55,533 nucleotides of DNA, taken from positions 1 through 55,533 of the IMG/VR virus record IMGVR_UViG_3300008448_000102, one strand, 5' to 3'. Shown in pieces: positions 4,205-41,494 of this stretch; position 1 is the stretch's first letter; each line of letters begins with the position of its first letter. The position numbers were made by a program, and so were the translations under genes. Source of the stretch: a virus. Its lineage: Duplodnaviria > Caudoviricetes. Below the pieces are notes generated by a model, which was not told the origin of the DNA, ran no database searches, and saw nothing but the letters and a program-made list of their open reading frames with translations.

Positions 4205-4205
4205 C

Positions 4206-4496: not shown

Positions 4497-4699
4497 TGAA
4501 GATAACATATCATGGTACCCCGCCTGTTGTAAACAAGAGCCGGGGCTTTGGAGACACAGTAGAGAAGTTCACCAACGCTACGGGCATAGCGAGGGTGCTA
4601 AAGAACATCACAGCGGCGGTCGGAGTTGAGGACTGCGGATGTGCAGCCCGAAGAGATACGTTAAACCGCATATTCCCATACAACAATGCCAACACCTAA
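4496..4699 (+). CDS. conserved phage hypothetical protein (GDTVEK...CGC..RR..LN)
   Basis: Coupled ORF with a recognisable CGC motif. Confidence 0.75.
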   Translation: MKITYHGTPPVVNKSRGFGDTVEKFTNATGIARVLKNITAAVGVEDCGCAARRDTLNRIFPYNNANT

Positions 4700-5189: not shown

Positions 5190-5190
5190 C

Positions 5191-5709
5191 ATGTCGATAA
5201 GGACACAGCAAGCAACGCAAATGATTTCGCAATGTAGGCCGAACGACACGGTTGACATTCCGAATCCATCAAACCGTATTACTCAGGGTGTAACATTTAG
5301 TGCTGTTGCTAACAAACTTATCAAGTCAGGACCCGATGGGTTATTTATTTCAAAGGGCGTTCAACCCGGAGACATAGCCTTGAATGTAAACAGTGGGTTT
5401 TATACTACTGTTGTTACCGTAGAGTCCGAGTCCTCTTTGTTATTGGCATCAAATATTTTTTCAGTAGCGAATCAGGCTTTTGCAGTTTTCAGGTCTATAC
5501 CAAACGGCGGATACCCTTGGACTCCATGTATTCGTATAATTACCTTCGGCGCACTTCCATATAATGTAAACTTAATTACGGCGGGAGGGGACAATATTAT
5601 ATTTACAACAACAGGATTCTTATCTGTTAACACACTCGGGAGCATCCAAGTAAGCAGGGTCCTTGCTACCGGAACAGATGCGGGTTTAATCTTCGCAGCA
5701 TTTCAATAG
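5191..5709 (+). CDS. putative head spike-base protein, paralog 2
   Basis: Shares GV.PGDI..N, TAGGD.I.F and V.RV motifs with the 4686 ORF. Confidence 0.5.
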   Translation: MSIRTQQATQMISQCRPNDTVDIPNPSNRITQGVTFSAVANKLIKSGPDGLFISKGVQPGDIALNVNSGFYTTVVTVESESSLLLASNIFSVANQAFAVFRSIPNGGYPWTPCIRIITFGALPYNVNLITAGGDNIIFTTTGFLSVNTLGSIQVSRVLATGTDAGLIFAAFQ

Positions 5710-6582: not shown

Positions 6583-6893
6583 AGTTTACAGATTGGTTAT
6601 CATCAATAGGGATAGATATAACACTAATGTTTGCAGGAATGGCGGGCAGCGTGTTGATGGCAACTAAGAGACAGAAGCAGAACATAAAGGCTTCGGTGTT
6701 GGGAATCGTGTCGGGTACACTCTCGGCTAACTACCTAACTCAGGTTGCCATCGAGGTATTTGAACTTGAGGGTCGCAGCCAATACGGCGTCGCCTTCTTG
6801 TTGGGATACTTTGGACTAAAGGGAGTAGAGAAGTTTGTAGAAAAATTCAGTAAGGATGGCAAAGCAGAAGACAACTTCGGACCGGGCTTTTAA
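6579..6893 (+). CDS. putative holin
   Basis: Three hydrophobic segments, a charged C-terminus, upstream of the endolysin. Confidence 0.7.
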   Translation: MKFTDWLSSIGIDITLMFAGMAGSVLMATKRQKQNIKASVLGIVSGTLSANYLTQVAIEVFELEGRSQYGVAFLLGYFGLKGVEKFVEKFSKDGKAEDNFGPGF

Positions 6894-6999
6894 GCCCAAG
6901 GCGAAGCGCAACAATAAGGGCGTACATTCCAAGAAGGGGTCGAGTAAATTAAAGACGAGCAAGAATTACAAGAAGGAGTACAAAGGTCAGGGTCGATGA
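6856..6999 (+). CDS. 47-aa basic protein ending YKGQGR (not in ORF track)
   Basis: MAKQKTTSDRAFKPKAKRNNKGVHSKKGSSKLKTSKNYKKEYKGQGR; ATGA overlap with the endolysin. Confidence 0.75.
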   Translation: MAKQKTTSDRAFKPKAKRNNKGVHSKKGSSKLKTSKNYKKEYKGQGR

Positions 7000-7445
7000 A
7001 CATATCGAAGAACTTCACGCTAAAGGAGATGATAAGCAGCACGACTGCTATACGTTTAGGCATACCGAACGACCCCCCATTAGATGTGGTGAACAATATG
7101 ATTTTATTGGCCGATGCTGTCCTTCAGCCTCTGCGAGAGTACATGGACGAGTCCATTAGGGTAAGCAGCGGTTACAGGAGCCCGGTTTTGAACCGCAAGA
7201 TTGGCGGGAGTAAGTCCTCTCAGCATTGCGTGGGTCAGGCGGCTGACCTAACATGCGATGGGAAGAACAAGAAGATGTTCGACTTCATCAAGGATAGCCT
7301 CGTGTTCGACCAACTAATATGGGAGTTCGGAACGGAGCGTGAACCCGATTGGGTCCACGTGTCATACAAGAGGGATGGCAACAGGCGTCAGGTCCTTGTG
7401 GCTAAGAAGGTAAACGGCAAGACGGTATATGAGCAATATGGCTGA
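6996..7445 (+). CDS. endolysin, peptidase M15A family
   Basis: SKNFTLKE, SSGYRS..LN..IGG...SQH..GQAAD and WVHVS motifs. Confidence 0.92.
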   Translation: MNISKNFTLKEMISSTTAIRLGIPNDPPLDVVNNMILLADAVLQPLREYMDESIRVSSGYRSPVLNRKIGGSKSSQHCVGQAADLTCDGKNKKMFDFIKDSLVFDQLIWEFGTEREPDWVHVSYKRDGNRRQVLVAKKVNGKTVYEQYG

Positions 7446-7896
7446 CAGGCAGAGGAAGAAGTTCAAGGACACCAAGTTGGGGCAGTTCCTGCGCGTCAAG
7501 GCACCAAAGGTGTTGGACGTGGTGGGGGACGCCTTGCCTGACGAGGGCGTATTAGGTATCGTCAAGAACCTAATAGAGAACTCGACTGAGTTGCGTGAGG
7601 AGGACAAGCAGATGCTTAACAATGTCCTGCGCGAGATGCAGGAGGTCGAGGTCAGGGACCGCGAGTCGGCTCGTCAGAGGGAGGTTGATATAGCCAAGTT
7701 GGGCAAGACGGACTTCATGTTCCTTATGACGGGGGCAATTGGGTTGGCGGTCTTTTGCTTTATTGTCTATGCAATCGTGTACCTTCAGGTCCCGGATGAC
7801 AACAAGGAGATATGGATTCACCTAATCGGAATCTCAGAAGGCGTAGTTCTTTCTATCTTTGGATACTATTTTGGAAGTTCAATCAAACGCAACTAA
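7438..7896 (+). CDS. membrane protein (holin/lysis accessory)
   Basis: DRESARQRE followed by two TM helices ending YYFGSS; alternative start at 7429. Confidence 0.75.
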   Translation: MADRQRKKFKDTKLGQFLRVKAPKVLDVVGDALPDEGVLGIVKNLIENSTELREEDKQMLNNVLREMQEVEVRDRESARQREVDIAKLGKTDFMFLMTGAIGLAVFCFIVYAIVYLQVPDDNKEIWIHLIGISEGVVLSIFGYYFGSSIKRN

Positions 7897-7906
7897 AAAT
7901 AAATCA

Positions 7907-8173
7907 ATGGAAGTAGTATCAAACAAGGCGTCACAGTACGTCACGGCAGAGGAACTAAACACGATTCAGAGCATGAACTCGGACTTTACACGGGCCAAGA
8001 TTGCGCTTGGGGAAATTGAACTCCAACGGCATGGCCTGTTAAAGCACATTGATGAACTCAAGGAAATGTTCACTAACAATGAAAAGATGCTTATTGAAAA
8101 GTATGGCGACAATGCTGTCATCAATGTTAAGACAGGCGAGGTCACTGATAAAGTGCATAATAACAATACTTAA
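7907..8173 (+). CDS. small coiled-coil protein
   Basis: ATG after an A-rich leader; EKYGD...INVKTGE C-terminus. Confidence 0.7.
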   Translation: MEVVSNKASQYVTAEELNTIQSMNSDFTRAKIALGEIELQRHGLLKHIDELKEMFTNNEKMLIEKYGDNAVINVKTGEVTDKVHNNNT

Positions 8174-8183
8174 AAGACTAACA

Positions 8184-9071
8184 ATGGCTAAGATAACCAC
8201 ATACCCCAACGATACAAACATCACATCAGGTGATAAGTTAATTGGCACAGACGTTGACAACTCTGATGCTACAAAGAACTTTACCGTAGGTGGACTTCAA
8301 TCCTTCTTTGGTCAGACATTTGTTCCATACACCGGGGCTACTCAGAATGTCAACCTCGGAACCTTTAACTTGAACACAACAGGTGACGGGGCGTTTGGGG
8401 ACTTGGCTGTAACTTCACTTGCTGATGTTGGTGTCCTGAAGGCAAACTTTGGGATTCAACTCCCACAGGGTGCGCTCGAGGTTGGCGCTACAAATGATGC
8501 GGGTTCCACGGGTGAGGTCCTTGTTAGTCAAGGAGCGGGTGTCGCCCCATCTTGGTCTCCATCTCCTTGGTTGATTCCTACGGGTGCGTCATTCTTTGAT
8601 ACGACGGTTCAGTCACCCAATCCTCTTCAGGCTCCAACAAAAATGAAGTTCAATACTACCGATATTTCTTCGGCTACTATTAGTATTGTTAACGACTCGG
8701 TTAGTATTATTCAGCCGATGCCAAGCCGTATATTTATTGCTGATACAGGTGTTTTTAACATTCAGTTTTCTGCCCAACTGCAAAAGACCGCAGGTGGTGG
8801 TACTGATAAGGTTTCTATTTGGCTGCGTAAGAATGGTGTAGATGTGCCAAATAGCACGACACATATCACCATGACAAACAACAATGATTACAATGTTGCT
8901 GCGTGGAACTTCTTTGCGAGTGCGACAACGGGGTTTCCAAACTATGACTACTTTGAAATTATGTGGGCGTCATTGACAGGGGCAACACTTTTGAATTATG
9001 AAACAGCCGACCTGATACCTCCACATCCTGCGGTTCCATCCGTTATCCTTACAGTAAACAAGGTCGCATAA
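8184..9071 (+). CDS. putative tail fibre/virion structural protein
   Basis: MAKITTY..DKLIGTD..TKNF N-terminus, VPYTGAT.NVNLG, C-terminal beta-sandwich (G.FNIQFSAQL). Confidence 0.7.
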   Translation: MAKITTYPNDTNITSGDKLIGTDVDNSDATKNFTVGGLQSFFGQTFVPYTGATQNVNLGTFNLNTTGDGAFGDLAVTSLADVGVLKANFGIQLPQGALEVGATNDAGSTGEVLVSQGAGVAPSWSPSPWLIPTGASFFDTTVQSPNPLQAPTKMKFNTTDISSATISIVNDSVSIIQPMPSRIFIADTGVFNIQFSAQLQKTAGGGTDKVSIWLRKNGVDVPNSTTHITMTNNNDYNVAAWNFFASATTGFPNYDYFEIMWASLTGATLLNYETADLIPPHPAVPSVILTVNKVA

Positions 9072-9301
9072 TGGTCGACATCAGGAAGATATCCATTGGT
9101 CCCGACTATAAGGGTGGCGCTATGCACTACATTGTAGGGCAGAAGGTCATCAACGATACCCATGAGATACACCTGATAAAATATGACGACAGCAAGCAGT
9201 CAGTCAAAATATATATCATAAACGAAAAATCGGAGATTACACTATGGAAGGAGTTCAACTCCACCATACCGATGTCAATCGAATACAATATAAACTACTG
9301 A
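9071..9301 (+). CDS. conserved hypothetical protein (IRKISIG.DYK..AMHY.VGQ)
   Basis: Coupled ORF; pattern recalled from Bacteroidota phages. Confidence 0.8.
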   Translation: MVDIRKISIGPDYKGGAMHYIVGQKVINDTHEIHLIKYDDSKQSVKIYIINEKSEITLWKEFNSTIPMSIEYNINY

Positions 9302-9864
9302 TGAGGTCACCCTTCTATTTCATAGTAGAACCAAAGGACAATAGCAGATACAATAACACCAAGGAGATAGGCGGAGTAGAGTTTATCGTCAACACGTCCG
9401 AGGAGGAGCATAAGTTCTCCAACAGACATGCTATTGTAATGGAGACGCCGCTTGGATACAACGGGCCAATCAAGCCCGGGGATACGCTGCTTGTTCACCA
9501 CAATGTGTTCAAGTTCTATAACGACATGAAGGGTAAGCGAAGAAGCGGCAAGAGTTTCTTTAAGGAGAATAAGTTCTTTATTGAGCCTGACCAATTCTTT
9601 TTATATAAGACCAATGGTGATTGGAACAGTTACGATAGGTACTGCTTTGTTAGGCCCGTTCCTGCCACCGATTGCTACATTAAGAAGCCGTTCACACACG
9701 AGCCTCTAATGGGGGAGATGGTATATCCAAACGATTACCTCAAGTCACGTGGGGTGAATGCAGGTGACAAGGTTTGCTTTACGCCTGAGAGCGAGTACGA
9801 GTTTGATGTAGACGGAGAGAAACTATACCGAGTATACGACCACCAAATAACTATGAAGTTATGA
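9301..9864 (+). CDS. GroES-like two-domain protein
   Basis: TGATG start at 9301; two repeats of FxV.P...(A/G).(V/M)...(I/V)..GD.(L/V) resembling the GroES fold. Confidence 0.55.
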   Translation: MRSPFYFIVEPKDNSRYNNTKEIGGVEFIVNTSEEEHKFSNRHAIVMETPLGYNGPIKPGDTLLVHHNVFKFYNDMKGKRRSGKSFFKENKFFIEPDQFFLYKTNGDWNSYDRYCFVRPVPATDCYIKKPFTHEPLMGEMVYPNDYLKSRGVNAGDKVCFTPESEYEFDVDGEKLYRVYDHQITMKL

Positions 9865-10340
9865 ATATAATTTCATTTGATAATATAATTATAGACCCTG
9901 ATAATTATATTAAAGATATTTTATCCAACAATTTTTGTGACGTACATGATGGTGAACATGTATTCAATGGCATACAGCAGCGTGGTGATGATGAGTTCTC
10001 TGCATACGTTTTGTCTTTATTTCATGGATATGAAGTGACATTTAATTTCATAAGAAAATCCTGCATTGGTCAAGAGGAGCCTAATTATATTCACTCTGAT
10101 GAGATGATGGGGGATATTACAGCCATATTGTATTTAAGCAAAGAGCATCCATCGGATGACGGAACCACCATGTATGATGATGAAAGAAAACCATTGGCTC
10201 GTATTTTTTCAAAGTTCAATAGGATGGTTGCTTTTGACTCATCTATATTGCACTCAAGGAATATATTTGAGAACTTTGGGGAGGAGGATAAATCAAGATT
10301 GATTCAGGTTATATTCCTAAAACATATTTTGATAAAATAA
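9861..10340 (+). CDS. 2OG-Fe(II) oxygenase-like protein
   Basis: HSD, ILYL, GT.MY, FNRMVAFDS..LHSR and RLIQV motifs; markedly AT-rich. Confidence 0.75.
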   Translation: MNIISFDNIIIDPDNYIKDILSNNFCDVHDGEHVFNGIQQRGDDEFSAYVLSLFHGYEVTFNFIRKSCIGQEEPNYIHSDEMMGDITAILYLSKEHPSDDGTTMYDDERKPLARIFSKFNRMVAFDSSILHSRNIFENFGEEDKSRLIQVIFLKHILIK

Positions 10341-10350
10341 CAATGAGGGT

Positions 10351-10635
10351 ATGAGGGATGTAAGGGAAGTGAAGTTGAGGATTATCGAGGCGGGACATCA
10401 GGCCGTAGAGCAACTCATAAAGGTTGCCAAGGAGGACATTATCAAGCACGATAACGAGGAGGAACTATCCGCTGACAGACTAAAGAACGCGGCGGCTACA
10501 AAAAAGTTAGCCATATTTGATGCCTTCGAGATTCTAACTAAGATTGAGATGGAGCGAGAAAATCTCGAGTCATCTAATGCCGATACAAAGCGAGTAGATA
10601 CACGACAAGGGTTTGCGGAAAGAAGGTCAAGATAA
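10351..10635 (+). CDS. putative terminase small subunit
   Basis: Immediately upstream of TerL; helical, with ADRLKNAAATKKLAIFDA. Confidence 0.65.
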   Translation: MRDVREVKLRIIEAGHQAVEQLIKVAKEDIIKHDNEEELSADRLKNAAATKKLAIFDAFEILTKIEMERENLESSNADTKRVDTRQGFAERRSR

Positions 10636-12862
10636 TGAACTATATGTTTCGATTAGGGGTTTCATCCCCACTGCTGTACTAAACAGGAAGAACAAGAGTA
10701 GGTCTTGGGAGTACGGGTATAATGCGGAACATGACATGGTCGTCATTTCAAAGACGGGCCAAGTTGGAGAGGTCGTAAACATATCCGGCCTAAACATAGC
10801 ACTGCCATTGGAACCAACAAAGTGTCCTCAAAGACACTCCAAACCCGAGGAGCAGTATTGGGAACGCAGTGAGTTACCCAAGGAATTGCTAAAGATTCAG
10901 TCCATCTTTCATTGGAATGAGATGCCGGGCGACTTTAAGAACGCTTGGGTGGACTACATAGAGCAGGAGTTCGATTACCGAGAGCAGGGCTATTGGTTTA
11001 TGAACAACGGGGTCCCAACTTATATTACGGGCTCCCACTACATGTACCTTCAGTGGTCAAGTATAGACGTAGGCTACCCCGACTACCGTGAGGCGAACAG
11101 GATTTTCTTTCTATTTTGGGAGGCATGCCGTGCAGACCCAAGGTGTTTTGGTATGATATACCTGAAGATTCGTCGTTCGGGCTTTTCATTCATGGCATCA
11201 TCCGAGTGCGTTAATATCGGAACGCTTGCAAAAGACTCGAGGGTCGGCATACTATCAAAGACGGGGGCCGACGCTAAGAAGATGTTCACCGACAAGGTGG
11301 TTCCAATTAACAGTAAGTTACCATTCTTCTTCCGCCCAATCATGGATGGGATGGATAAGCCTAAAACAGAGTTGGCGTTCAGGGTTCCCGCCTCTAAAAT
11401 CACCAAGAAGAACATGTACGAGGTGAGCGGGGATGACATCATGGGGTTGGACACCACCATAGATTGGAAGAACACAGAGGAGAACTCCTATGACGGAGAG
11501 AAACTATTGTTCTTGGCACACGACGAAAGCGGAAAGTGGGTTAGGCCAAACAACATTCTTAATAATTGGCGTGTAACCAAGACGTGTTTGCGCTTGGGAA
11601 GCAAGATTATAGGTAAGTGCATGATGGGGTCTACCTCAAATGCCCTCAGTAAGGGTGGCGATAACTTCAAGTCCCTGTATGAGGACTCGAATGTATCCTA
11701 TCGAAATGCCAACGGTCAGACAAAGAGTGGCATGTATGGCCTGTTCATACCTATGGAGTGGAACATGGAGGGCTTCATCGACCTATATGGCATGCCTGTG
11801 CTTCGTAAGCCTGAGAAGAGGGTACGCGGAGTGGACGGTGGATGGATAGAAAACGGTGCTATTGACTATTGGGATGCCGAGGTTGACTCGCTAAAGAACG
11901 ACTCGGACGCCCTGAATGAATACTACCGTCAGTTTCCGAGGACAACATCGCATGCTTTTAGGGATGAGAGCAAGCAGTCGCTGTTCAACCTAACCAAAAT
12001 CTACCAACAGATTGACTACAACGACTCCGTCATCAAGGAACACTACCTCACAAGGGGCTCATTCCATTGGAAGGACGGTATAAAGGACACTCAGGTCATT
12101 TGGATGCCCGACAAAAGGGGCAGGTTCCTCATATCTTGGTTCCCAAAACGGGAACTTCAGAACAGGGTCATTGAAAAGAACGGCATTAAGTACCCCGGCA
12201 ACGACCACCTTGGGTCTTTTGGGTGTGACTCCTACGATATATCGGCTGTTGTTGGTGGCAGGGGGTCAAATGGGTCACTGCATGGCATGACTAAGTACCA
12301 CATGGACGACGGCCCGGTCAATGAGTTCTTCTTGGAGTACATTGCCCGCCCTCAAACGGCTGAAATCTTCTTTGAAGAGGTGCTGATGGCCTGTGTTTTC
12401 TTCGGGATGCCTATCTTAGTGGAGAATAATAAGCCGAGGCTGTTATATCACTTCAAGAACAGGGGGTACAGGGGGTTCTGCATGAACCGACCTGACCGAG
12501 AGTTCACTAAATTGTCAAAAACTGAGCGTGAACTTGGAGGAATACCCAACTCTTCCGAGGAAGTTAAGCAAGCACACGCCTCAGCAATCGAATCCTATAT
12601 TGAGAAGTACATTGGGTACGACACGACGGGCACATACCGTGAGCCTGACGTGATTGGGACGATGCCTTTCACCCGAACATTGGAGGATTGGGCAAAGTTT
12701 GACATAAACGACAGGACAAAGTTCGATGCCTGTATAAGTTCAGGGTTGGCTGTTATGGCAAACCAAAAACATCTGTACCAACCCGAGAAAAAACAGACAA
12801 AAATTAGCATTAACTTTGCAAGATATATCAATGATGGAATATCAAGTAAACTGATTAGATGA
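10613..12862 (+). CDS. terL: terminase large subunit
   Basis: Walker A-like KIRRSGFS, Walker B LAHDE, coupling motif GST, nuclease GCDSYD and FDA; TTG start uncertain. Confidence 0.92.
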   Translation: MRKEGQDNELYVSIRGFIPTAVLNRKNKSRSWEYGYNAEHDMVVISKTGQVGEVVNISGLNIALPLEPTKCPQRHSKPEEQYWERSELPKELLKIQSIFHWNEMPGDFKNAWVDYIEQEFDYREQGYWFMNNGVPTYITGSHYMYLQWSSIDVGYPDYREANRIFFLFWEACRADPRCFGMIYLKIRRSGFSFMASSECVNIGTLAKDSRVGILSKTGADAKKMFTDKVVPINSKLPFFFRPIMDGMDKPKTELAFRVPASKITKKNMYEVSGDDIMGLDTTIDWKNTEENSYDGEKLLFLAHDESGKWVRPNNILNNWRVTKTCLRLGSKIIGKCMMGSTSNALSKGGDNFKSLYEDSNVSYRNANGQTKSGMYGLFIPMEWNMEGFIDLYGMPVLRKPEKRVRGVDGGWIENGAIDYWDAEVDSLKNDSDALNEYYRQFPRTTSHAFRDESKQSLFNLTKIYQQIDYNDSVIKEHYLTRGSFHWKDGIKDTQVIWMPDKRGRFLISWFPKRELQNRVIEKNGIKYPGNDHLGSFGCDSYDISAVVGGRGSNGSLHGMTKYHMDDGPVNEFFLEYIARPQTAEIFFEEVLMACVFFGMPILVENNKPRLLYHFKNRGYRGFCMNRPDREFTKLSKTERELGGIPNSSEEVKQAHASAIESYIEKYIGYDTTGTYREPDVIGTMPFTRTLEDWAKFDINDRTKFDACISSGLAVMANQKHLYQPEKKQTKISINFARYINDGISSKLIR
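10822..10837. repeat. 16-bp palindrome copy 2 (GTGTCCTCAAAGACAC)
   Basis: Variant copy inside terL. Confidence 0.8.
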
Positions 12863-31012: not shown

Positions 31013-34000
31013 ATGAACGATAAGATTCAGAAACTATACGACCTCTATACTCAGAGTGGTCTACTTAACTCAACAGACTTAAATACGTTTGCGTCCGCAA
31101 CACCTGAGCAGCAGCAGAAACTGTACGACCTTGGTGTATCAAAGGGGCTATTCAAGTCCGTTGACTTTTCGACGTTCAGCACGGCGTTCCAAGTAAAAAA
31201 AAAAGACGAGGCCGTCCCCCCGGCAGAAGAAACAATCCCAAGCCCACAGCCACAGCAGGAGCAACCCGCCGCTATGGCATCTCCTTCGGGCGTTTCTTCA
31301 TCGGCATCTCCATCGGGCCTCCAAGAGTTTAAGGGCTTCAGTCCTGAGCAACTAAGTGGTATGAAAGCCTCCGCTCAGGAGGCACCCGAGGTGGCACGTA
31401 TGAGGGCTGAAATGCAAAAGCCTGAGAGAGAAAGGCAAGAGCAAGAGAGAGAAAAGAAGGAGGCCGCCTCATTTAAGGCGGCTACCGCATCAGAGGCTGA
31501 CTTTGCGAGTTCACTCGGTAAGGTCAACAAGGAACTCATAGACTTTGATGAGGACTACATTGCGCCTCAACTGAACTACATGTTCGGCACGTATGGCTTT
31601 AAGTTCAACCAAGCGTTACCCGGTCAGGAGGCTATTGAAGTCGTGGCTCCGAACGGTAAGAAGAAGACCATAGCCGTCGATACCTTCTCGGATAAGAAAG
31701 ACCTTGAGAGTTCAAATGAACTCAAGGCATTCATTAACGAGAATAAGCCAAAGATTGTATCAATGGCAAATCAGTACAGTCAATACGAGAGGAAATTCAA
31801 TAATGAGCAGGAGATAGCAAACTCCTTCAAGTCAATAAACGAGGAGGCTAATACTCTTGCGAAAGAGCAGAAGGATGTGGCGGCTCGATATGCCGCAGTA
31901 CAGAAGGAGATGGAGTACCTATCCACTCCCGCAGCCAAGGCTGCACCCGACTATCAACAGAGGCTTGCCAAGTTTAACACAGACTCTCAGGAGATAAACA
32001 ACAGCGTCAAGCAACTCTCCGCAAAGGAGTCTGATGTTATACTAAAGCAAAAGAAACTTGACAAGTCAGTTGGCTTGTACACAGAGATGAAATCCGAGCA
32101 GGGTGGAATCTTTGGTGCAATGTATAACGCAGCAGTAGGAAGCATTGGTGCATCATCAGCGGGGCGTGTTGGTTTATTCACAGACTTAGTTACGGCGATA
32201 GTCCCACTTGAATATCAAATGGGCGAGAATGCGTACCGCAAATCGTTTATAGAAAAGGCCATATCAAATGGCATAAGCGTCCCTCAAACACTTAGCAAAG
32301 AAAACTTCGACGCTTGGGTAGACAGATTAGATGAGGATGTCAGGGATAATATAGACTCAAAAATACTTGACGAGAATCGCAAGGGTATAAAGCAGGAGAT
32401 GCTTCCCGTAGTCAGAACAGGTCTCACTCAGATGATTGGTGACCAAGGGACTACCAAGGAATACATGGAGAAAAAGCAGGAGGAGTACATCGCGGGTGGC
32501 CTTATAGGTCTTGGCGGCTCTGCTCCTGCCATAGCATTGTCTATGGGTGCCGCCCCTGTTGGTATGGCTGAATTTTTCTTTTTGGGTATGGACGCCACCA
32601 TGCAGCAAATGAATGCTCCCGAGTTCAAAGACATCTCAGAAACAGAGAAGTATGCGGTGGCTGTACCCGTCGGCGTAGTCAACGCTGTATTGGAGGAGTT
32701 CGGGTTGAGAAATGTAATTGGCAAGTCGGGCGTTGTAAACAACTTGGTGACGAGGGCATTGAGCAAGTCTACCAAGACCACAACCGCCAAGTCTTTCAAG
32801 GAGTTGGTCGAGAATGAGGTAGAGAGCGACATAGCACGAGGTGTACTCACGTTTGCCGCTGCGGGATTAGCAGAGGCTGAGACGGGTGCAGCACAGGCGG
32901 CTGCCGAGATTGGTATTCAGGAGATATATAATACCGTCAAGGAGAAGAAATTGTTTCAGACCCCGAACTCAATGGGTGAGTTGATTGATGACGTACTCAA
33001 GTCGGGTGTGCAAGAGGCCGTAGGTGGCTTCGTTATGGGTATGCCGTCCGCTATTAGCACGGCATACAAGGACAACAACTATAATGGAGTAACCGACGAA
33101 CATATTGCGTTCTTCCAAGCATTTGCAAATGATGTGAATGTAAGGAACGCCTTCGATATTAAACTAAAGAATGACATCAACATCGGGAAGATTACAGCCG
33201 AACAGGCTCAGGAGAAACTCGACAACTATACTGCCGCCTCGGGATTGCTGAATACATTACCTGATGGATTGGATAATGCACAAAAGCGTAAGGCTCTTGG
33301 TCTTATCCAAGAAAGGAAGGGGTTAGAGAATCAGATTCAGAACAAAGATGAGGCACTAACCAAGAAACAGAGAACGAGGATTGCTGAGATAAACACAGAG
33401 TTGGAGGGGATAATGGAGATGACTCCCGCCCCCGCAGCGCCGACCATCTCCGAGGGCGAGAGGCTGATGCCCATCACGCCCGAGGCTCCCGCCGCTGAAG
33501 CGAAGCCGCTTACACGGACAGAGATAACGAACCCTGACCTGAAGGCGGTAATAGACGAGCGAGTCATGTTTTATGAGAACATGCTAAAGCGAGACGAGGA
33601 GTTTTACAATGAGCAAATGGCCGAGTGGAATAAGAAGGGATTACTTCAAAAAATGTTCGGCACATTGGCGGGCGCAAAGCCAAGTTACAAGGAGGCGGTT
33701 CGGCATGCTAAAGGAAAGTTAGAGCAACTCGAAAACAATCCCGAGGCTTACTTTCAGGAGACGCTTGATTTTTACATGGAGGATATGCCTGAAGTTCCGG
33801 CTGAACAGATGTATATGTACTCCGATAAAATAGGTGAGGAGACTGAAGATGGAGCGCGATACAGAACGAACTTAGTAAATTTATTAAAAACTTTTAAGGA
33901 GGAAAACGATGCCATTCAAAAGCAAGCAGCAGGTCAAGTACCTGTACAGCCAAGAGCCGGAGGTAGCCAAGAGGTGGCGCAAGGAGAACCCCAAGCAGGA

Positions 34001-37000
34001 CCTCAAGAAGTTACCCAAGAAGGTCAAGCCCAAGAAGGGGTAGTGTCTTCGAGGACACTCGAAGAGCAGGTGTCCGCCCTCGAGCAGATGATGACCGAGG
34101 AGGAGACCAATGACTTGATTGATGAGTTTGCATTGGCGGTGGACACCGTAGATGACGCACAGGCTGCTCTGTCCCGTGGCGACCTTGTCTATGTATTCGA
34201 TGAGACCACCGAGGCACCGACCTTGGTATCGGACGCCACCGTTCTTGCGGGGTATACACCCGACCGTATCGCCGTGGTTCCAAGGGAGAACTCCCCTATG
34301 GCACAGCAGCCGCAAGCGCAGCCACAGATGTCAGCCGTTGAGTTCATAATGGGTGGCATCGCCCCAACAGAGAATGTGGTGATTGGCTCCAACAAGGCCC
34401 AACTTGATTCGGTTAGGGCGCAGACAACTGACGCCACTAAGCGTCGTGTGTTGGATATGGTTGACAGCGGAGTGAAGGTACTCAAGGCGTTGTTCCCGAA
34501 TGTTGACATCGCCGTGCATACCACAGCCGAGTCTTACAATCAGGCTATGCGAAACCTTGGATATGGGACCGACTCCAAGGGGCGATTCTCCACAGTTTTG
34601 GATGCCGACGGAAAGGTTGCAGGTGGCCGTATAGATATTGACCTATCGAGTGCTGATGGTGTAACGGTAGCGCACGAGATTGCACACGCCGTGATGCTCA
34701 AGGCTTTCGGTGATAACCCTGCGCTATTCAAGACATTCAGGGGAAAGATTAGCAAGATACTTGCTGACTCTACTGTAAAGAAACTCAATGATTTCGCAGA
34801 CCAATACAACGAGAGCGAGTCGCATGAGGAGTTCTTGGTTCAACTTGCGGGGATGCTTACTGATAACGCTCAGGAGTTGGCACGTGTTGAGCCTACCACC
34901 ATTCAGAAGATTGCCGATGCCATCAACAGCATTGTGTCTACAATCACGGGAGGAAGGTTCGTTCCGTTCAAGGGCACGACCGACGTGAACCAACTCGTTG
35001 ACTTCTTGAATACAATCACGAGGTCTATCCGTGAGGGTGAGTTCTCTGATTTGATGAACCAAATTGAGGCTTACTCTACCGCCACACCAATCCCCGTTTC
35101 CGAGCCTGATAATTTCAACTCAAAGCAGTATAAGTCTAAGGCAAGCATTGGTAAGTATACAATACCAAAGGGGTCAGACCCTATACTAAAAACAGCAAAT
35201 TTACCTGTAAGGTCATTGTCTGACTTAGTAAAGCAGTACGGTGGTCGAGTTGCTATTATCACAAGTGATGCAACAGGTTATGGTGTTGATTCAGATGGAG
35301 CGCCAATCTTAGGTGGATTTGGATTTTGTGTTAATGCAAAGAATAACCAAGACAACATAGGATTTGCAAGTGTCAATGTTGGTACTGTAAGAACAACATA
35401 TACCCTTGCAGAAAAGGCTTATGGTAAGGGGAAGACGTTAGTCTTGGTAATGATACAGCCACCCCATACTACAATAAATAATTCTTATGGGGCCAAGTAT
35501 ATATTGAGAGGTCTTGTGGACTTAGCCAAAAAGTCTAAAAAAGATTTTGAGTCCGCAAAGGGTGGCATGGAAGACTTCATTAAAAAGTCAAAGGCTATTC
35601 AAAAAGAATTTAAGTCAGAGGATGGTAAGGCGAGAGCAAGTCAAAAAGAACTCATAAAGTTTATAGATAGCATAAACTCAAAAACAAACATTGACAGGGC
35701 GGTTCAGGACTTCTTGGCAATGACCACATTTACCATAAGAAAAGAATTGGGTCTTGGTATTCTGTTAGAAAGAGGAGATGTACGTATTTCTAAGGGTACA
35801 AACCCTGCTAAAGTAGCATTCAACGGGTTAGGATATAATATATTCAACTTCCTCAAGGAGTATGGAGACTCATCTATATTAGATGATAATATCATACTTG
35901 ATAATAAGGGTGGCCTTTTGGTCGGTGGATTTGAGTTAGATGTTTTGCCTAAAGAGCAAAGAGAAAAACTTATTCTTGATACTCAAAGCAAAGGGATAAA
36001 TCATCCTCTGTTTAATGCTAAACTCCCCGGAACAAATCACTTTGTATTAGATGGCTTGTATGATGTGCAGGAAAACTTTGGAAAGTATGCAAAGCCGGAC
36101 ACAATAATCTTATTAGAAAAAGAAATAGTAGATGCTTTAGTTAGAAAGTATTACCCAACCGATGAATACTATAACGCTGATGCCAAAAAAAGTTTTAATG
36201 CTCAAAGAAAGAAGGGTGTAGCGGAAAAGGATATACAGAGAGAGTATAAAGACTTAACGGCTGCTATCAAAAGTGAGTTTAAGTATAAATATCTTACAGG
36301 GATAAAGGGTGCATTAGCACCGAAAGAACCAAAACTCATAGCAAAAGTTTCCAAGGGGGAAGGATTTGTACCTAAAGAAGGTGCTGAAACTGAATTGGCT
36401 TCGGCTGCATTTACAGCAATCGGGAAATACGAAAAGGCTGACGCCAAGGATAAACCAAAACTAAAGTCCAAAGCGCAGGTAGCCGTTCATAAGGACACAG
36501 GCTTTGTGCCTGTTGGTTTTTGGGTCGAGCAACTCAAGGGAAAGACGGCATACCTTGATGAGGTAATTAAGCATGTATTAAAAGCACGTGAGGAACTCAA
36601 GGAGGGAAAGGTAAGGGAAAGAAAAGTAGTCAAGGCATATCTTATCACAATAGGCTCTGTACTTGCAAGAGGAGGTACTTACTCCGAATGGAAGAAGAAA
36701 ACAAATCAGGAGGTGAGCGATGTCTTCTTAGAGAAGGTGAATGGTAAGGACCACCTAAGACCTGAAGGGGTATCTGCCGCTTATCTTATCACTCCTGATG
36801 GAGAAAAATTAGTTGATGACATCATAAACGGAACAGCCACATTCGAGCAGATAAGGAAGATGTTTGAATATGTAGGCTTTGGTCTTGAAAACAAAAGGAC
36901 AAACTATGTTCTTGAAACCATGAAGAATGATGGCTTTAAGGCCATGACTGACTTATTCAACAAGAACAAGGGTTCTGACTTTAATGAACTATACAAGGGA

Positions 37001-40000
37001 GCAATAAAGAATTTTGCAGGAATAAGAGAAGGTAAGACAGGATTCTTCAATCAGTTTTTTGGTGTGACATCACGTGGTGTAATTGACGCCCGTGAACTTA
37101 ATGCTTGGGTTGCGGGTTCGATGGACCTCACTCCTGAGCAAAGGGCTAAGGTTGAGAAAGTTTCAAGAAGTAAGAAACTTGGAGAGCAATTACTTGGATA
37201 CATCGAGCAGGTTGGCATCGAGTTAGGATACCCGAAGGATTTGGCGGGATACATTGCACACCATGGGATATGGGATTCCATCGCCAAGTCTGTCACCACC
37301 CATCAGGGCGAGTATATGGTGGTCTCCAAGGCGCAGAAGGCAGCAGAGGGTGCAGAAAAGGAGAAGTACAAGGTCGTCATCGTATTCAAGAGCAAGTTCG
37401 GTGGGAGTAGGGCCAAGCCATACGAGTTCAATGACAAGAGACACTTCGATAATTGGTTCAAGAAGTATGGAGAAAAGTACGACATCAGGGAAATCTATGA
37501 GATGAACTCGAAGGCGCAACTATCAAAGTTGCGTGGTATGGAGCGCATCGTTGAACTCGGTCGTGCAAGTGGATTCTCGGACGAGGCCATCACCGTTGTT
37601 CTTCAAAAGAAGGGATACTCGCAGTCAGAAATAGACGAGGCGTTGAAGACCAAGAAGGCCGCATCAAAGGTTGTCGTCAATGAGACTTTCGTCGAAGGGT
37701 ACGACCGCATGATGGGCGAGGTTGATGGCATCATCGAGAAGGGCTTGAGGCGTGGCTCAACGCAGGAGCAGATACTCGACAATATCATCAACTACATCCA
37801 AGGCTCTAAGGCATACGAGAACGCCACCGATGTTCAGCGTGAGCAGTTGATTCGTGACGCACGTGCTGCGTTCGGCAAGAAGGAGAAGGCGGCACCGAAG
37901 GTTGAGCGCATCCTCGGTACACTCAAGGACGTGAAGAACGTCACCATGTCGGAGTACCAACTGCTCAAGAAGCAGATTAAGGACTACGCCAAGGGTGCGA
38001 AGGATGCTACCAAGGCATGGCGGTTGGCTTCAGAGTCGCTGACAAAAGACCTGCGGGAGTTGGTACGTGGCGGAAAGATAACGAGCAAGCAAGCCGTTGC
38101 CGTCCTGCGTAGGTTCTCGAAGGTCAACATGTTCGACCCGAACTCAATCGAGTCGTTTGTCAACTACATGACCAAGGTGTTCGAGAACGCCGACTATGCG
38201 GAGCGCATATCAGGTCTGAGAAAGAAACTGAAGTTGGCTAAGGATAGTGCGAGTCGTAAGATTGGTATTGCAGAGGGTCTTTACCCGATGCTGAACCGCA
38301 TGCTTCGCATTGACCCGACCCTCATACCTGACTCGGTGCTTGACACATACGCCGAGATTGTTGAGATGCTCGGCAAGCGTGATGCTGTGCTGAAGTTGCA
38401 GGACATCCAAGATGTGACAGAGAAGACCAAGACCGTACTCGATGCTGTGGATAGTGAACTATCTACATTGGAGACGCTGTCTGAAATCTTCGAGCAGTAT
38501 GCAGACAAGGTCGTTGACGAGAATGGTGCTATTCAGTTTGCTGACACGCTCGATGCGATGGTAAGCGACGGCACCATCACAAACGACGAGGCAAAGATTC
38601 TCAGGAAGTACAAGAATATAGTGATGCCACGCGCTGCAAAACCTGAGAAGACAGAGGAGCAGTTGAAAGAGGAGCGAGATGAAATGCTGAAGGCGTTGTC
38701 TTCGGTTGACATTGACGCTGAATCGCTGCCGACTCAGGACGAGCGTGACTTGGCTCGTGAGTTACAGAAACTCAAGGATAGCGATGCGGTTGAGGGACTG
38801 TCGAACAGTGAACTCGAGAAGTTGCTGCGCGTCATTGACAACATAAACAACGGGTATCTTCCTCACTACGCTCAGTTAATGAAGGAGAAACTCAATGCCA
38901 TCAATAACGAGAAGGCACTCGAGTCGTCGGTCAAGAAAGCGAAGCCGTTGCCTGTAACTAAACTGTATGCAAGACTGAAGAGCCTGTTCTACAAGAACTC
39001 CAAGGCCCTTGACCTTATGGTTCAGCGAAATCCGCTGTTCTATATCGACCAAGTCTTCGGTGACTTTAAGACCAAGGATATTTTCAACTCTATCTTAAAG
39101 CCAATCTCTGATGCAATGGGCGTCTTCAACTTATCCATTCAGCGGGTAGAGGACAAACTCAATGGCGCACTCGACGAGGTGGCGAAGTCGCATAAGAACG
39201 ACCCGAAGAAAACAAAGATGTCGTCATACAAGATGATGACGTACATGCTGCAACTTGAGTTCATGTCGAACCCTGACAGCGTTGGTGTCAATCCTGCATC
39301 TGAGTTCTTGAAGGCAACCATAAAGCATATCCGTGCTGAGAAGTCGCACCTTAGTGACATTGATGCCGACATGCTTCAGGAGATTCTTGATACGTACTCT
39401 GATTCGGATGGCAACATCGACTCAGAGAAACTATTTAAGTCATTCAATCCCGCAGAGAAGAAGGCACTCGATACCATTAAGGGTATCAACGTAGACATGC
39501 GTGATAAGGCTGTATTTACAGCACACATTATCCGTGGCGACAAACTCACTCCGCTGAACAACTACGTACACCACAACGTGCTGCATGAGTTTAGGCCCGA
39601 GGAAAACATATCGGGTGTTACATCGGCGGAGGAGTTCAATAATATGATGCAGCCGTCCACCCGTGGCAAGTCTCTCATATCAAGAACAAAGGGCGTGAAG
39701 CCATTAGATTTTAACGTGTTCTCAGCCACTCAGCGTGGAGCCAACTATGTGCTGATGGACTACTACCTGACCGAGCCTATCAGGACGGCAAGGAAGACCA
39801 TCAATGCCACCGAGAAGGCACTCGAAGGTGAGACGGGAATGAACAAGAATGATAGGGACACCTTCAATGCCATCCGTAATTCGTTCGAGGCTGCTGTAAG
39901 GAACACGCTAATGACGAGGTTCCATAACAATACGTTTGCTGACGAGGTTGTGAACTTTGTAACCAAGAACGGATACCGTGCCGTTCTCGCAAGTACAACA

Positions 40001-41494
40001 AGGTGGGTTGCTGAATTGACATCGAACATGGGCTTCATCATGTTTGCCGACCGTGCGTCGTGGCTCAATGGTATACAGAACTACATGGATGTGGTATCGT
40101 CACCGAACTCAATCGACATCCTTACCAACCTGAAGAGTTCTCAGTCTGCAAGGCTTTACCCATCTGACACATTATCGGGTCGAATGATTGACTCAAGCAT
40201 GATGAGCCAAGCAAGTGGCACACGTGGGGGTAGAACAAGGGGAGACATTGCAAATACAATGCAGCGCATCTACAACAACTCGCTGAAGAAGTATCAGAAC
40301 TTTGTTGAGACCACAGCCGATTCGCTTATCTCTACGCCTGATAAGATTATGATGAGGCCATATTGGTTTGGCTCGTTCGCTAAGGAGTTTAAGAGCATCA
40401 CGGGCAAGGAACCAAACTTTGACCTGATTGCAGAGAACAACGAGGCGTACATGACCGAGAACAAGGAGGCGCTCGAGCAAGCGAAGAAGACTGCCGACGA
40501 TAAGAGCGTACTTGCGGGTGCATCCGACAACCCATTTATGGGCATCCTCAAGGGTCAGATAACGCCCGACATGAACTCATTACTGAAGGCGTTCAATGTG
40601 TTCAACAACTACATGACACGCTTCCTTATCTACGAATACTCTACCGCAAGGACGGGCATCATGGCAGCCATTGGAAATGGAAGCATCACACGTAAGCAGG
40701 GTGCCGCACTTCTCGGTGGTGTAGCCACAAGGATGGTGGTATACTCACTGCTCACATCCACACTTAGCAACGCATTGGTCGGACTCTTTGTTGATGACGA
40801 GGACGAGGACGACGAGAAGTCCCTGTTGCAGAAGATGGGTCAGGCTATGGCGTCGGGTATGAGTGCCCTGCTGCTTGGCCGTGACTTTGGTAACGCCACA
40901 AGGGCGGTCATCAACTATGGTGTTGAGCGCATGAACGAGGAGTTCCTTACCGGACTGAGGAGTGGTGACTACGACCCATATAAGGACGCCATTGCATACT
41001 CAGCCTTTGCAAGCCAAAGCGACAATGCCACGCTTCAAGACTATGCCATCAATATGATGGGGCCGCTAACTCCAATAGCGAAGACCACGGCGTTGATTGT
41101 TAAGAAGGCTTCGGGTGAACCAAAGAAAGAGGCAGCAGCACGTGGACGTGAGCAGAAGGAGATTGAGGTTCGTATCCCGTTGGAGATTCTTGGTAACGTA
41201 GGCCTTGTTCCCCTGTACAAGGATGTACGCAAGGTAGTGATGGCCGACATTTACAAGGGCATGAAGAAGGAGTTGGGGAAGGGCGACTTCAAAAAACAAG
41301 AGCAGGAGGACATGAGCCGTGAGGACATGAAAAGATACTTCCCTCAAATGTATGAGCAGATGTATGGGAAGCGTTCTCCGAACTATAAAATGGAGCAGTC
41401 CATGAAAAAGTTTGACAAGAAGATGAACGACTTAGACAGGAGGATGAAGGACGAGATGTACAACTACACTCCAAAGAAAAAGGATAATGACTAA
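31013..41494 (+). CDS. giant polyvalent/ejection protein (3493 aa) with a zincin HExxH domain and an HhH glycosylase-like module
   Basis: Uninterrupted ORF; HEIAH at 34673-34687; hydrophobic Gly/Ala segments; modular composition. Confidence 0.8.
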   Translation: MNDKIQKLYDLYTQSGLLNSTDLNTFASATPEQQQKLYDLGVSKGLFKSVDFSTFSTAFQVKKKDEAVPPAEETIPSPQPQQEQPAAMASPSGVSSSASPSGLQEFKGFSPEQLSGMKASAQEAPEVARMRAEMQKPERERQEQEREKKEAASFKAATASEADFASSLGKVNKELIDFDEDYIAPQLNYMFGTYGFKFNQALPGQEAIEVVAPNGKKKTIAVDTFSDKKDLESSNELKAFINENKPKIVSMANQYSQYERKFNNEQEIANSFKSINEEANTLAKEQKDVAARYAAVQKEMEYLSTPAAKAAPDYQQRLAKFNTDSQEINNSVKQLSAKESDVILKQKKLDKSVGLYTEMKSEQGGIFGAMYNAAVGSIGASSAGRVGLFTDLVTAIVPLEYQMGENAYRKSFIEKAISNGISVPQTLSKENFDAWVDRLDEDVRDNIDSKILDENRKGIKQEMLPVVRTGLTQMIGDQGTTKEYMEKKQEEYIAGGLIGLGGSAPAIALSMGAAPVGMAEFFFLGMDATMQQMNAPEFKDISETEKYAVAVPVGVVNAVLEEFGLRNVIGKSGVVNNLVTRALSKSTKTTTAKSFKELVENEVESDIARGVLTFAAAGLAEAETGAAQAAAEIGIQEIYNTVKEKKLFQTPNSMGELIDDVLKSGVQEAVGGFVMGMPSAISTAYKDNNYNGVTDEHIAFFQAFANDVNVRNAFDIKLKNDINIGKITAEQAQEKLDNYTAASGLLNTLPDGLDNAQKRKALGLIQERKGLENQIQNKDEALTKKQRTRIAEINTELEGIMEMTPAPAAPTISEGERLMPITPEAPAAEAKPLTRTEITNPDLKAVIDERVMFYENMLKRDEEFYNEQMAEWNKKGLLQKMFGTLAGAKPSYKEAVRHAKGKLEQLENNPEAYFQETLDFYMEDMPEVPAEQMYMYSDKIGEETEDGARYRTNLVNLLKTFKEENDAIQKQAAGQVPVQPRAGGSQEVAQGEPQAGPQEVTQEGQAQEGVVSSRTLEEQVSALEQMMTEEETNDLIDEFALAVDTVDDAQAALSRGDLVYVFDETTEAPTLVSDATVLAGYTPDRIAVVPRENSPMAQQPQAQPQMSAVEFIMGGIAPTENVVIGSNKAQLDSVRAQTTDATKRRVLDMVDSGVKVLKALFPNVDIAVHTTAESYNQAMRNLGYGTDSKGRFSTVLDADGKVAGGRIDIDLSSADGVTVAHEIAHAVMLKAFGDNPALFKTFRGKISKILADSTVKKLNDFADQYNESESHEEFLVQLAGMLTDNAQELARVEPTTIQKIADAINSIVSTITGGRFVPFKGTTDVNQLVDFLNTITRSIREGEFSDLMNQIEAYSTATPIPVSEPDNFNSKQYKSKASIGKYTIPKGSDPILKTANLPVRSLSDLVKQYGGRVAIITSDATGYGVDSDGAPILGGFGFCVNAKNNQDNIGFASVNVGTVRTTYTLAEKAYGKGKTLVLVMIQPPHTTINNSYGAKYILRGLVDLAKKSKKDFESAKGGMEDFIKKSKAIQKEFKSEDGKARASQKELIKFIDSINSKTNIDRAVQDFLAMTTFTIRKELGLGILLERGDVRISKGTNPAKVAFNGLGYNIFNFLKEYGDSSILDDNIILDNKGGLLVGGFELDVLPKEQREKLILDTQSKGINHPLFNAKLPGTNHFVLDGLYDVQENFGKYAKPDTIILLEKEIVDALVRKYYPTDEYYNADAKKSFNAQRKKGVAEKDIQREYKDLTAAIKSEFKYKYLTGIKGALAPKEPKLIAKVSKGEGFVPKEGAETELASAAFTAIGKYEKADAKDKPKLKSKAQVAVHKDTGFVPVGFWVEQLKGKTAYLDEVIKHVLKAREELKEGKVRERKVVKAYLITIGSVLARGGTYSEWKKKTNQEVSDVFLEKVNGKDHLRPEGVSAAYLITPDGEKLVDDIINGTATFEQIRKMFEYVGFGLENKRTNYVLETMKNDGFKAMTDLFNKNKGSDFNELYKGAIKNFAGIREGKTGFFNQFFGVTSRGVIDARELNAWVAGSMDLTPEQRAKVEKVSRSKKLGEQLLGYIEQVGIELGYPKDLAGYIAHHGIWDSIAKSVTTHQGEYMVVSKAQKAAEGAEKEKYKVVIVFKSKFGGSRAKPYEFNDKRHFDNWFKKYGEKYDIREIYEMNSKAQLSKLRGMERIVELGRASGFSDEAITVVLQKKGYSQSEIDEALKTKKAASKVVVNETFVEGYDRMMGEVDGIIEKGLRRGSTQEQILDNIINYIQGSKAYENATDVQREQLIRDARAAFGKKEKAAPKVERILGTLKDVKNVTMSEYQLLKKQIKDYAKGAKDATKAWRLASESLTKDLRELVRGGKITSKQAVAVLRRFSKVNMFDPNSIESFVNYMTKVFENADYAERISGLRKKLKLAKDSASRKIGIAEGLYPMLNRMLRIDPTLIPDSVLDTYAEIVEMLGKRDAVLKLQDIQDVTEKTKTVLDAVDSELSTLETLSEIFEQYADKVVDENGAIQFADTLDAMVSDGTITNDEAKILRKYKNIVMPRAAKPEKTEEQLKEERDEMLKALSSVDIDAESLPTQDERDLARELQKLKDSDAVEGLSNSELEKLLRVIDNINNGYLPHYAQLMKEKLNAINNEKALESSVKKAKPLPVTKLYARLKSLFYKNSKALDLMVQRNPLFYIDQVFGDFKTKDIFNSILKPISDAMGVFNLSIQRVEDKLNGALDEVAKSHKNDPKKTKMSSYKMMTYMLQLEFMSNPDSVGVNPASEFLKATIKHIRAEKSHLSDIDADMLQEILDTYSDSDGNIDSEKLFKSFNPAEKKALDTIKGINVDMRDKAVFTAHIIRGDKLTPLNNYVHHNVLHEFRPEENISGVTSAEEFNNMMQPSTRGKSLISRTKGVKPLDFNVFSATQRGANYVLMDYYLTEPIRTARKTINATEKALEGETGMNKNDRDTFNAIRNSFEAAVRNTLMTRFHNNTFADEVVNFVTKNGYRAVLASTTRWVAELTSNMGFIMFADRASWLNGIQNYMDVVSSPNSIDILTNLKSSQSARLYPSDTLSGRMIDSSMMSQASGTRGGRTRGDIANTMQRIYNNSLKKYQNFVETTADSLISTPDKIMMRPYWFGSFAKEFKSITGKEPNFDLIAENNEAYMTENKEALEQAKKTADDKSVLAGASDNPFMGILKGQITPDMNSLLKAFNVFNNYMTRFLIYEYSTARTGIMAAIGNGSITRKQGAALLGGVATRMVVYSLLTSTLSNALVGLFVDDEDEDDEKSLLQKMGQAMASGMSALLLGRDFGNATRAVINYGVERMNEEFLTGLRSGDYDPYKDAIAYSAFASQSDNATLQDYAINMMGPLTPIAKTTALIVKKASGEPKKEAAARGREQKEIEVRIPLEILGNVGLVPLYKDVRKVVMADIYKGMKKELGKGDFKKQEQEDMSREDMKRYFPQMYEQMYGKRSPNYKMEQSMKKFDKKMNDLDRRMKDEMYNYTPKKKDND
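33909..34043 (+). CDS. nested 44-aa basic protein in the +1 frame of the giant gene
   Basis: MPFKSKQQVKYLYSQEPEVAKRWRKENPKQDLKKLPKKVKPKKG, preceded by AAGGAGG; resembles the MPFKS..Q small phage proteins. Confidence 0.6.
   Translation: MPFKSKQQVKYLYSQEPEVAKRWRKENPKQDLKKLPKKVKPKKG
34043..34058. repeat. 16-bp palindrome copy 4
   Basis: Exact GTGTCTTCGAGGACAC inside the giant gene, overlapping the stop of the nested ORF. Confidence 0.9.

Follow-up and report, generated by a model that had tools for sequence, protein, structure and literature searches.

A conserved poly-A run in a giant phage virion gene is a probable recoding site for a short trans-frame protein

The DNA analyzed here (the "window") comprises positions 1 to 55,533 of the IMG/VR virus record IMGVR_UViG_3300008448_000102 (Duplodnaviria; Caudoviricetes), and the element under study is a run of ten A near the start of its giant structural gene, whose product, P0001, has 3493 residues. 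The open reading frame (ORF) of this gene occupied 31013..41494 on the plus strand, and position 31193 was therefore the first base of codon 61. The sequence GTA AAA AAA AAA GAC was read there, with the ten A at 31195-31204. An earlier inspection of the letters alone (the sequence-only reading) had noticed the run at codons 61-64 and had proposed that ribosomal -1 frameshifting or transcriptional slippage on it gives a short isoform of the giant protein; the position of the run was confirmed from the sequence and the limits of the ORF. The features of the locus were as follows.

31013..41494, plus strand: giant ORF P0001, 0-frame product of 3493 residues; last gene of the structural module, with a match to phrog_32588 in the C-terminal third.
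31013..31192, plus strand: N-terminal domain, codons 1-60, common to the long and the predicted short product; two helix-loop-helix repeats.
31195..31204, plus strand: A10 slippery run, V61 K62 K63 K64 (GTA AAA AAA AAA); kept as A9-A11, in each of the three codon phases, at 63 of 64 non-redundant sites.
31204..31332, plus strand: -1 frame tail, 42 codons and TAA; basic Arg/Pro/Gly linker followed by an aromatic/glycine motif.
31273..31305, plus strand: conserved core YGISFGRFFIG of the -1 tail, dual-coded with the 0-frame linker MASPSGVSSSA.

From position 31204, the -1 frame read 42 sense codons, RRGRPP...YGISFGRFFIGISIGPPRV, up to the TAA at 31330-31332, and the final residues before this stop were ...RRYGISFGRFFIGISIGPPRV. 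Together with residues 1-64 of the giant protein, the shifted product would contain 64 + 42 = 106 residues, in agreement with the open frame and the length of about 106 residues given in the sequence-only reading. The A10 was the longest homopolymer of the window, in which about 0.08 runs of at least ten A were expected from base composition alone, and the only second run of at least nine in the 55.5 kb was an A9 at 47611-47619. Since the window alone could not decide what the run does, the weight of the analysis rests on the comparison with relatives.

Homologues of the giant protein were sought in the protein database with residues 1-500 of P0001 as the query, and 36 were found, with 2374-3807 residues and 23-83% identity. 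An exact KKK was present near the N-terminus of 34 of them: in 33 it fell within residues 55-101, and in P0012, which is truncated at the N-terminus, it stood at residue 7. The remaining two, P0003 and P0013, were truncated before the site. For the comparison of nucleotides, an alignment of eleven N-terminal regions retrieved 116 IMG/VR relatives, of which 80 loci were kept, and loci identical within 150 nucleotides on either side of the run were collapsed. Three loci with the run elsewhere, at about codon 250, and no tail (L048, L072, and L080; 67 non-redundant sites if these are counted) and two loci with no run (L051 and L055) were left out. The resulting set of 64 non-redundant sites, 63 IMG/VR loci and the window, underlies the site counts given below.

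The run consisted of ten A in 50 sites, nine in 10, eleven in 3, and eight in 1, so that A9-A11 was found at the same domain boundary in 63 of the 64 sites, regardless of codon phase. It started at codon position 3 in 43 sites, at position 1 in 9, and at position 2 in 12. By length and phase (phase 0 being position 1), the counts were (10,2) 41, (9,0) 8, (10,1) 8, (11,1) 3, (9,2) 2, (10,0) 1, and (8,1) 1. The giant ORF remained in frame in 62 of the 64 sites, and all of these in-frame runs had at least nine A, in every phase. Loci with an A10 at position 2 read either GAA AAA AAA AAT (E-K-K-N) or CAA AAA AAA AAG (Q-K-K-K), with ten A in all of them. In the bodies of the same ORFs, lysine was encoded by AAA 3310 times and by AAG 2269 times (59% AAA), none of the 32 other exact KKK tripeptides was written as AAA AAA AAA, and only four other runs of at least nine A occurred in 345,430 nucleotides. 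Runs of A9 or longer were thus avoided in these ORFs except at this site. Because the run was kept in three phases, including the one that encodes E-K-K-N, and because the other KKK tripeptides were never all-AAA, it is conserved as nucleotides and not as lysines. The run and the tail occurred together, and L051 and L055 had neither. The conservation of the run, which the sequence-only reading had named as a check, was borne out, and of the observations that it had listed as contrary to its claim, those on homologues were not made: no AAG broke the run in the homologues, and no early stop closed the -1 frame, the shortest tail having 16 codons.

Past the run, the -1 frame began with 2-47 residues of basic character, followed by a peptide resembling YGITFGRWFIG. 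The motif was found by pattern in 50 of the 64 sites (39 strict and 11 loose), with the stop codon 4-14 codons past it and a total tail length of 16-61 codons; looser variants were seen in most of the other sites, so that the YGIxFGRxFIG peptide singled out in the sequence-only reading proved to be conserved. Codon positions were analyzed in 43 distinct 33-nucleotide motif blocks. The entropy at positions 1, 2, and 3 of the -1 frame codons was 0.73, 0.50, and 1.25 bits, respectively, and the third positions of the three motif glycine codons, with 1.84-1.95 bits, were almost random. This near-saturation indicated that the divergence is deep. Pairwise amino-acid identity in the same blocks was 0.61 in the -1 frame, 0.40 in the 0 frame, and 0.34 in the +1 frame, and the share of differing codons that were synonymous was 0.44, 0.14, and 0.05, respectively.

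An unanchored test was also made, in which the best ungapped 11-residue window per pair was sought within 180 nucleotides past the run in 52 sites, 12 near-duplicate loci having been removed by hand for this test and for the RNA-structure test described below. Among 1326 pairs, the -1 frame was best in 941, against 235 for the 0 frame and 150 for the +1 frame. In the control region 600-780 nucleotides downstream, 988 of 1225 pairs had the 0 frame as the best. The "motif" that recurs in the 0 frame, T-[AE]-L-P-S-[AE]-[GD]-G-S-L, was found to be the -1 codons read one base later. Aromatic residues made up 21% of the tails, glycine 14.5%, basic residues 17%, and acidic residues 1.6%; when these nucleotides were translated in the 0 frame, 2.8% of the residues were aromatic and 15.5% acidic. 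These comparisons indicate that the -1 frame is under purifying selection. Independent initiation of the -1 ORF was also considered and was rejected: the distance from the previous -1 stop to the run had a median of 5 codons, and no ATG, GTG, or TTG was present in this interval in 60 of the 64 sites. In these sites, with the preceding stop so close and start codons absent, entry from the 0 frame at the run is the only way into the tail.

Taken as a whole, these sequences make it likely that recoding does take place at the A10 run and yields a functional short product; very probably, then, a hidden protein of about 106 residues is also made from the gene. The site appears to be maintained across a large family of giant virion ("polyvalent"-type) genes in phages of Flavobacteriia-like hosts. 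Standard decoding would give the protein of 3493 residues, and a fraction of expression events would enter the -1 frame at the run. The short product of about 106 residues would then consist of the four-helix N-terminal domain (residues 1-64), a basic linker, and the aromatic/glycine tail YGISFGRFFIG..., ending at the TAA at 31330-31332. As a guess at its function, it might serve as a partner, an assembly factor, or a membrane- or virion-docking form that uses the giant protein's N-terminal domain. The core of the sequence-only reading, slippage giving a short form with the N-terminal domain, was therefore upheld by the comparison with relatives, but its AT-hook detail was not: the AT-hook-like RGRP was specific to one lineage and was found only in the window and in its two closest relatives, L001 and the GenBank record MW202828.1.

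Either the insertion of one A in the mRNA or a -1 shift of the ribosome would yield the conserved frame. Slippage of RNA polymerase on the run, by which part of the mRNAs would gain one A, seems somewhat the likelier mechanism. The RNA-DNA hybrid of RNA polymerase spans 9-10 bp, and slippage is efficient on runs of nine A or T (PMC5009743, partial text). Added A's, one or several, occur in diminishing proportion in the mRNAs of Thermus dnaX (same source), so the commonest slip product, with one added A, gives exactly the frame conserved here. A homopolymer of about nine or more, as at sites of the Thermus dnaX type, was present in the window (A10) and at all in-frame sites. No excess of RNA structure was detected near the run: the mean z was +0.12 in the 60 nucleotides downstream (1 of 52 below -2) and -0.35 upstream, compared with -0.19 and -0.17 in the controls (n = 52, and 51 for one control), and the value of the window itself was -1.39. 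A search of Rfam gave no frameshift element, only a chance microRNA match (E = 0.68, with 19 bits where the gathering score is 70). The polymerase was favored because the runs have at least nine A, a length at which slippage is known, and lack flanking RNA structure, and because A9 is avoided elsewhere in the ORFs.

The alternative that survives best leads to the same short product through -1 programmed ribosomal frameshifting at an in-phase A_AAA_AAA, as in Escherichia coli dnaX; we consider it possible, though doubtful. The conserved frame, -1, fits a ribosomal shift, an in-phase A_AAA_AAA or A_AAA_AAG heptamer was present in every observed class of length and phase (GT-A AAA AAA in the window), and A-rich heptamers belong to the classic shift sites of bacteria (PMC5009743 and PMC4066793, partial texts). 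Seven A would be enough for the ribosome, however, yet all in-frame sites kept at least nine; neither a family-wide structure upstream or downstream nor an Rfam frameshift element was found; and the avoidance of A9 at the other KKK tripeptides (0 of 32) was better fitted by a length-dependent process. A weak or non-canonical stimulator of the ribosomal shift may remain, and polymerase slippage and ribosomal shifting could both contribute.

Slippage could also be placed in the DNA. Replication slippage would then toggle the giant gene as a contingency locus, and the -1 product would be merely its "off" state. Contingency loci at phage homopolymers were recently reported (10.1101/2025.10.21.683753, partial text), and run-length variants did occur here, at 2 of the 64 same-position sites and among small ORFs of the -1 type (P0038-40, P0042, and P0049) and of the +1 type (P0041 and P0043). 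An "off" state, however, needs neither a conserved alternative-frame peptide nor a conserved stop position, and both were present. With 62 of the 64 sites in frame, with A10 kept in the contigs of all four metagenome runs examined (although contigs hide rare variants), and with a genome locked in the short form left without a virion structural protein, this explanation appears very improbable.

Least probable, and by our judgment scarcely credible, is the view that there is no functional second product, so that the A track would attenuate or pace translation of the 10.5-kb ORF by poly-lysine or poly-A stalling, or KKK would be a protein signal such as a cleavage site, with the -1 peptide a shadow of a conserved 0-frame motif: it would be suited by the KKK of 34 among the 36 database homologues, after which an LPSxxGS-like motif recurs in the 0 frame, and by a linker composition that opens both alternative frames in the window, but the E-K-K-N loci keep A10 without KKK, the variation of the 0-frame "motif" falls exactly on second codon positions and is confined to residues that the -1 codons allow, the -1 frame beats the 0 frame by 941 to 235 of 1326 pairs, and the stop holds closely to its position past the motif. 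A role of KKK as a motif of the protein was rejected on the E-K-K-N loci, and a mere translational attenuator was judged insufficient because it leaves the selection on the -1 frame unexplained.

Several observations weigh against recoding by polymerase slippage into a functional tail or limit the case for it. The openness of the -1 frame is unremarkable by itself, as at least 43 open -1 codons were found at 4% of positions in the gene, and the +1 frame was likewise open after the run, for 52 codons. The motif pattern failed in 14 of the 64 sites; most of these were longer-loop variants such as YGIRY...GR.WLIG, and the aromatic tails of L035/L041, L045, and L032 were only loosely similar. In the nearest GenBank relative, MW202828.1, the two flanking glycines of the motif were cysteines (YCIKLGRYSIC, sequence read by eye). 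The loci are related, and their counts are not independent events. The 43-block alignment was anchored on the -1 frame pattern, a bias that the unanchored test was made to remove. Contigs from four of four metagenome runs (four studies) carried A10 with no indel; these contigs carry little weight either way, because contigs drop rare variants. The structure prediction described below gave the tail of a natural short form no confident structure (pLDDT below 50). Finally, the choice between polymerase and ribosome was drawn only from the run length and from the structure that was not detected.

The kind of site is already known. Its closest parallels are the dnaX gene of Thermus thermophilus (tau/gamma), for the run and the truncated product, and the potyvirus P3N-PIPO, for the embedded ORF and the one added A. 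In Thermus dnaX, about nine A lie in the coding strand inside one long ORF, as in the phage gene, and slipped mRNAs give a truncated protein with a common N-terminus without the need of an elaborate stimulator (PMC5009743). Both alternative frames of Thermus dnaX stop at once, however, and its out-of-frame tail is irrelevant, whereas the phage site has a conserved -1 tail of 16-61 codons with a motif of its own, lies in a virion gene, and leaves only about 60 of 3493 residues in the shared part. P3N-PIPO resembles the phage site in that a short conserved ORF without a start codon is embedded, out of frame, in a very long one and is fused to the N-terminal part when one A is inserted at a conserved A run, GAAAAAA (PMC5027478 and PMC7618844, partial texts). 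It differs in being made by the replicase of an RNA virus in a eukaryotic host, with six A; the phage site lies in a double-stranded DNA phage, is presumably transcribed by a bacterial-type RNA polymerase, and has A9-A11. Phage tail chaperones G/GT likewise have a conserved late-gene recoding site that sets the proportion between two proteins sharing their N-terminal part (PMC5009743), but the G/GT shift extends a short protein while the site described here truncates a giant one, and nothing points to a tail chaperone. In Citrobacter rodentium tssM (PMC4256274, partial text) and Shigella spa13 (PMC5009743), bacterial RNA polymerase slips on poly-A and gives two length variants of a structural or secretion-machine protein, much as proposed here; in these genes the frame is restored or extended, and the available texts describe no conserved embedded short ORF. 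Escherichia coli dnaX (A_AAA_AAG) shares with the phage site a slippery heptamer of lysine codons and a truncated product with a common N-terminus. Its frameshift uses an upstream Shine-Dalgarno-like element and a downstream stem-loop; no structure of this kind was detected at the phage site, whose run exceeds the heptamer in length.

The site was also present in three named phage records, two of them of cultivated phages, and a fourth carried an analogous run.

MW202828.1 (uncultured), 741..12320, minus strand: giant coding sequence (L081); A11; -1 tail of 25 codons.
Flavobacterium phage elemoF (Elemovirus): structural protein of 3694 residues; A10 at codon 57, unique in the 59.8-kb record; aromatic/glycine -1 tail of 44 residues.
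Tenacibaculum phage Gundel_1, gp074: A10 at codon 50; -1 tail of 31 residues.
Cellulophaga phage phi38:1, gp101 (L085), KC821614.1, 67422-72497: structural protein of 1691 residues; A10 at codons 33-36, run at 67520-67529.

The slip site was unannotated in MW202828.1, the Elemovirus records, and Gundel_1, in which the giant ORF alone was annotated. The A10 of phi38:1 was the only one in its 72.5-kb genome and was followed by an aromatic/Gly-rich -1 tail of 25 residues. The gp101 protein was not supported as a homologue of P0001 (BLASTP E = 5) and is treated as analogous only, because BLASTP gave no homology. RNA-seq and proteomics data exist for phi38:1. The giant homologue of MW202828.1 was annotated as "reticulocyte binding/rhoptry protein", a name that looks like a spurious transfer to a low-complexity phage protein. 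The N-terminal region had no match in INPHARED, by either blastn or tblastn, and a single-protein scan of IMG/VR confirmed none of 7 pattern matches. Literature searches found no published description of this site: "frameshift" and "slippage" were absent from PMC5335546, PMC13288928, and the available part of PMC5512222, and "gp101", like "frameshift", was absent from PMC5335546 and PMC13288928.

Natural short forms were found among the relatives. In two contigs the run was frame-shifted, to A8 in L011 and to A11 in L021, and in both the N-terminal domain continued directly into the -1 tail. Small ORFs of the -1 type in the protein database were P0039, P0040, P0042, and P0049, and those of the +1 type were P0041 and P0043; the search was seeded with the L011 ORF, a -1 type query, and favors the -1 type. 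The repeat KLYDL..G..F..F was seen in the translation of the N-terminal domain of P0001. An AlphaFold2 prediction for P0039, the natural short form of a relative (six-row alignment), gave four helices at residues 3-59, with a predicted local distance difference test (pLDDT) score of about 85. Searches of Pfam and the ESM Atlas with the short form and the N-terminal domain gave nothing but a weak match to DUF3364, below the cut-off, on P0044. The 83% identical homologue P0003 (3317 residues) had its called start at the equivalent of P0001 residue 172, so that the N-terminal domain, the run, and the linker were absent from the call; a frame break at or beyond the run is possible in its contig. 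In the -1 frame of L067, from position 1440, the tail motif occurred twice in tandem (...YGLIIGRWCFG...CGIIIGRWCFG...) before the stop. One strain in a freshwater run had a 9-nucleotide deletion at 31251, in the linker between the run and the motif, by which the 0 and -1 frames were both kept.

The run appears to be a mosaic joint as well (window 31195 and upstream 31013-31192; L001:2309-2510). L001 and the window were 73% identical from residue 62 on, and their N-terminal domains were unrelated, with 27% nucleotide identity in the 120 nucleotides upstream. One metagenome contig joined an L001-like N-terminal domain to window-like sequence exactly at 31195, and P0049 had a different N-terminal domain, yet the same -1 tail as P0039 and P0040. 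In a wider and more speculative reading, which we hold to be unlikely as a whole, the trans-frame protein would be an unrecognized, near-universal product of a broad group of Bacteroidota podophages, freshwater and marine, including Elemovirus, Gundelvirus, and perhaps Cellulophaga phage phi38:1. The linker and tail would anchor copies of the N-terminal domain at the membrane, or at the interior of the portal or capsid, and these copies would there act on the giant ejected protein by recruiting it, chaperoning it, or clearing its path; the length of the A run would set the ratio through stuttering of RNA polymerase, and the run would also be a recombination joint where lineages exchange N-terminal domains.

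If the site acts as proposed, the annotation of a large and environmentally abundant group of phages lacks a conserved protein, because gene callers and GenBank annotate only the giant ORF. It would provide a clean natural case, in a double-stranded DNA phage, of poly-A slippage leading into an embedded ORF, with conservation deep enough for a selection signature. Its presence in cultivable phage-host pairs makes the mechanism, ratio, and function directly testable, and it bears on the assembly or delivery of giant "polyvalent" virion proteins. Polyvalent proteins (Iyer et al., 2017) are very large multidomain proteins in virion context with disparate enzymatic domains (ART-PolyVal, LPD) and are predicted to be packaged and injected (PMC5512222, partial text). 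The giant family was tentatively placed among them because the homologues P0002 and P0025 carried ART-PolyVal, LPD23, and GNAT domains in Pfam searches. In P0001 itself, Pfam gave no domain above the cut-off, and phmmer against the sequences of the PDB gave 0 matches. An HExxH-like motif, VAHEIAHAV, was present at about residue 1215 of P0001 (window about 34650-34690), and VAHEVAHAV was present in P0002-P0006, which suggests a metallopeptidase-like module within the giant protein.

In the window annotation, the large terminase subunit lay at 10613-12862 and the portal at 12859-15294, and the same block encoded several virion structural proteins and a structural protein of 1722 residues, with the giant gene last. 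With terminase, portal, and virion structural genes upstream, the giant ORF thus stood in the context of a structural module. The window terminase was 79.5% identical to that of MW202828.1 (uncultured podovirus, spring water), 44.7% identical to those of Flavobacterium Elemovirus phages, and 30-38% identical to those of Cellulophaga and Tenacibaculum phages, and the stretch was present in freshwater and lake metagenome runs, with no RNA run among those listed as containing it. A full-length GroEL-like chaperonin was encoded at 626-2233 on the plus strand (phrog_5725, E = 3.9e-136), and a helicase and a BT4734/DUF5906 primase-like gene were encoded on the other strand. The run at 47611-47619 (A9 on the plus strand, T9 on the minus strand) was rejected as a second slip site since it is intergenic; it belonged to an AT-rich stretch with a TTGACA-like box. 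On the minus strand, this T9 stretch lay downstream of a terminator-like GC-rich hairpin with T7, at about 47690-47725, and upstream of the primase-like gene, which starts at 47517.

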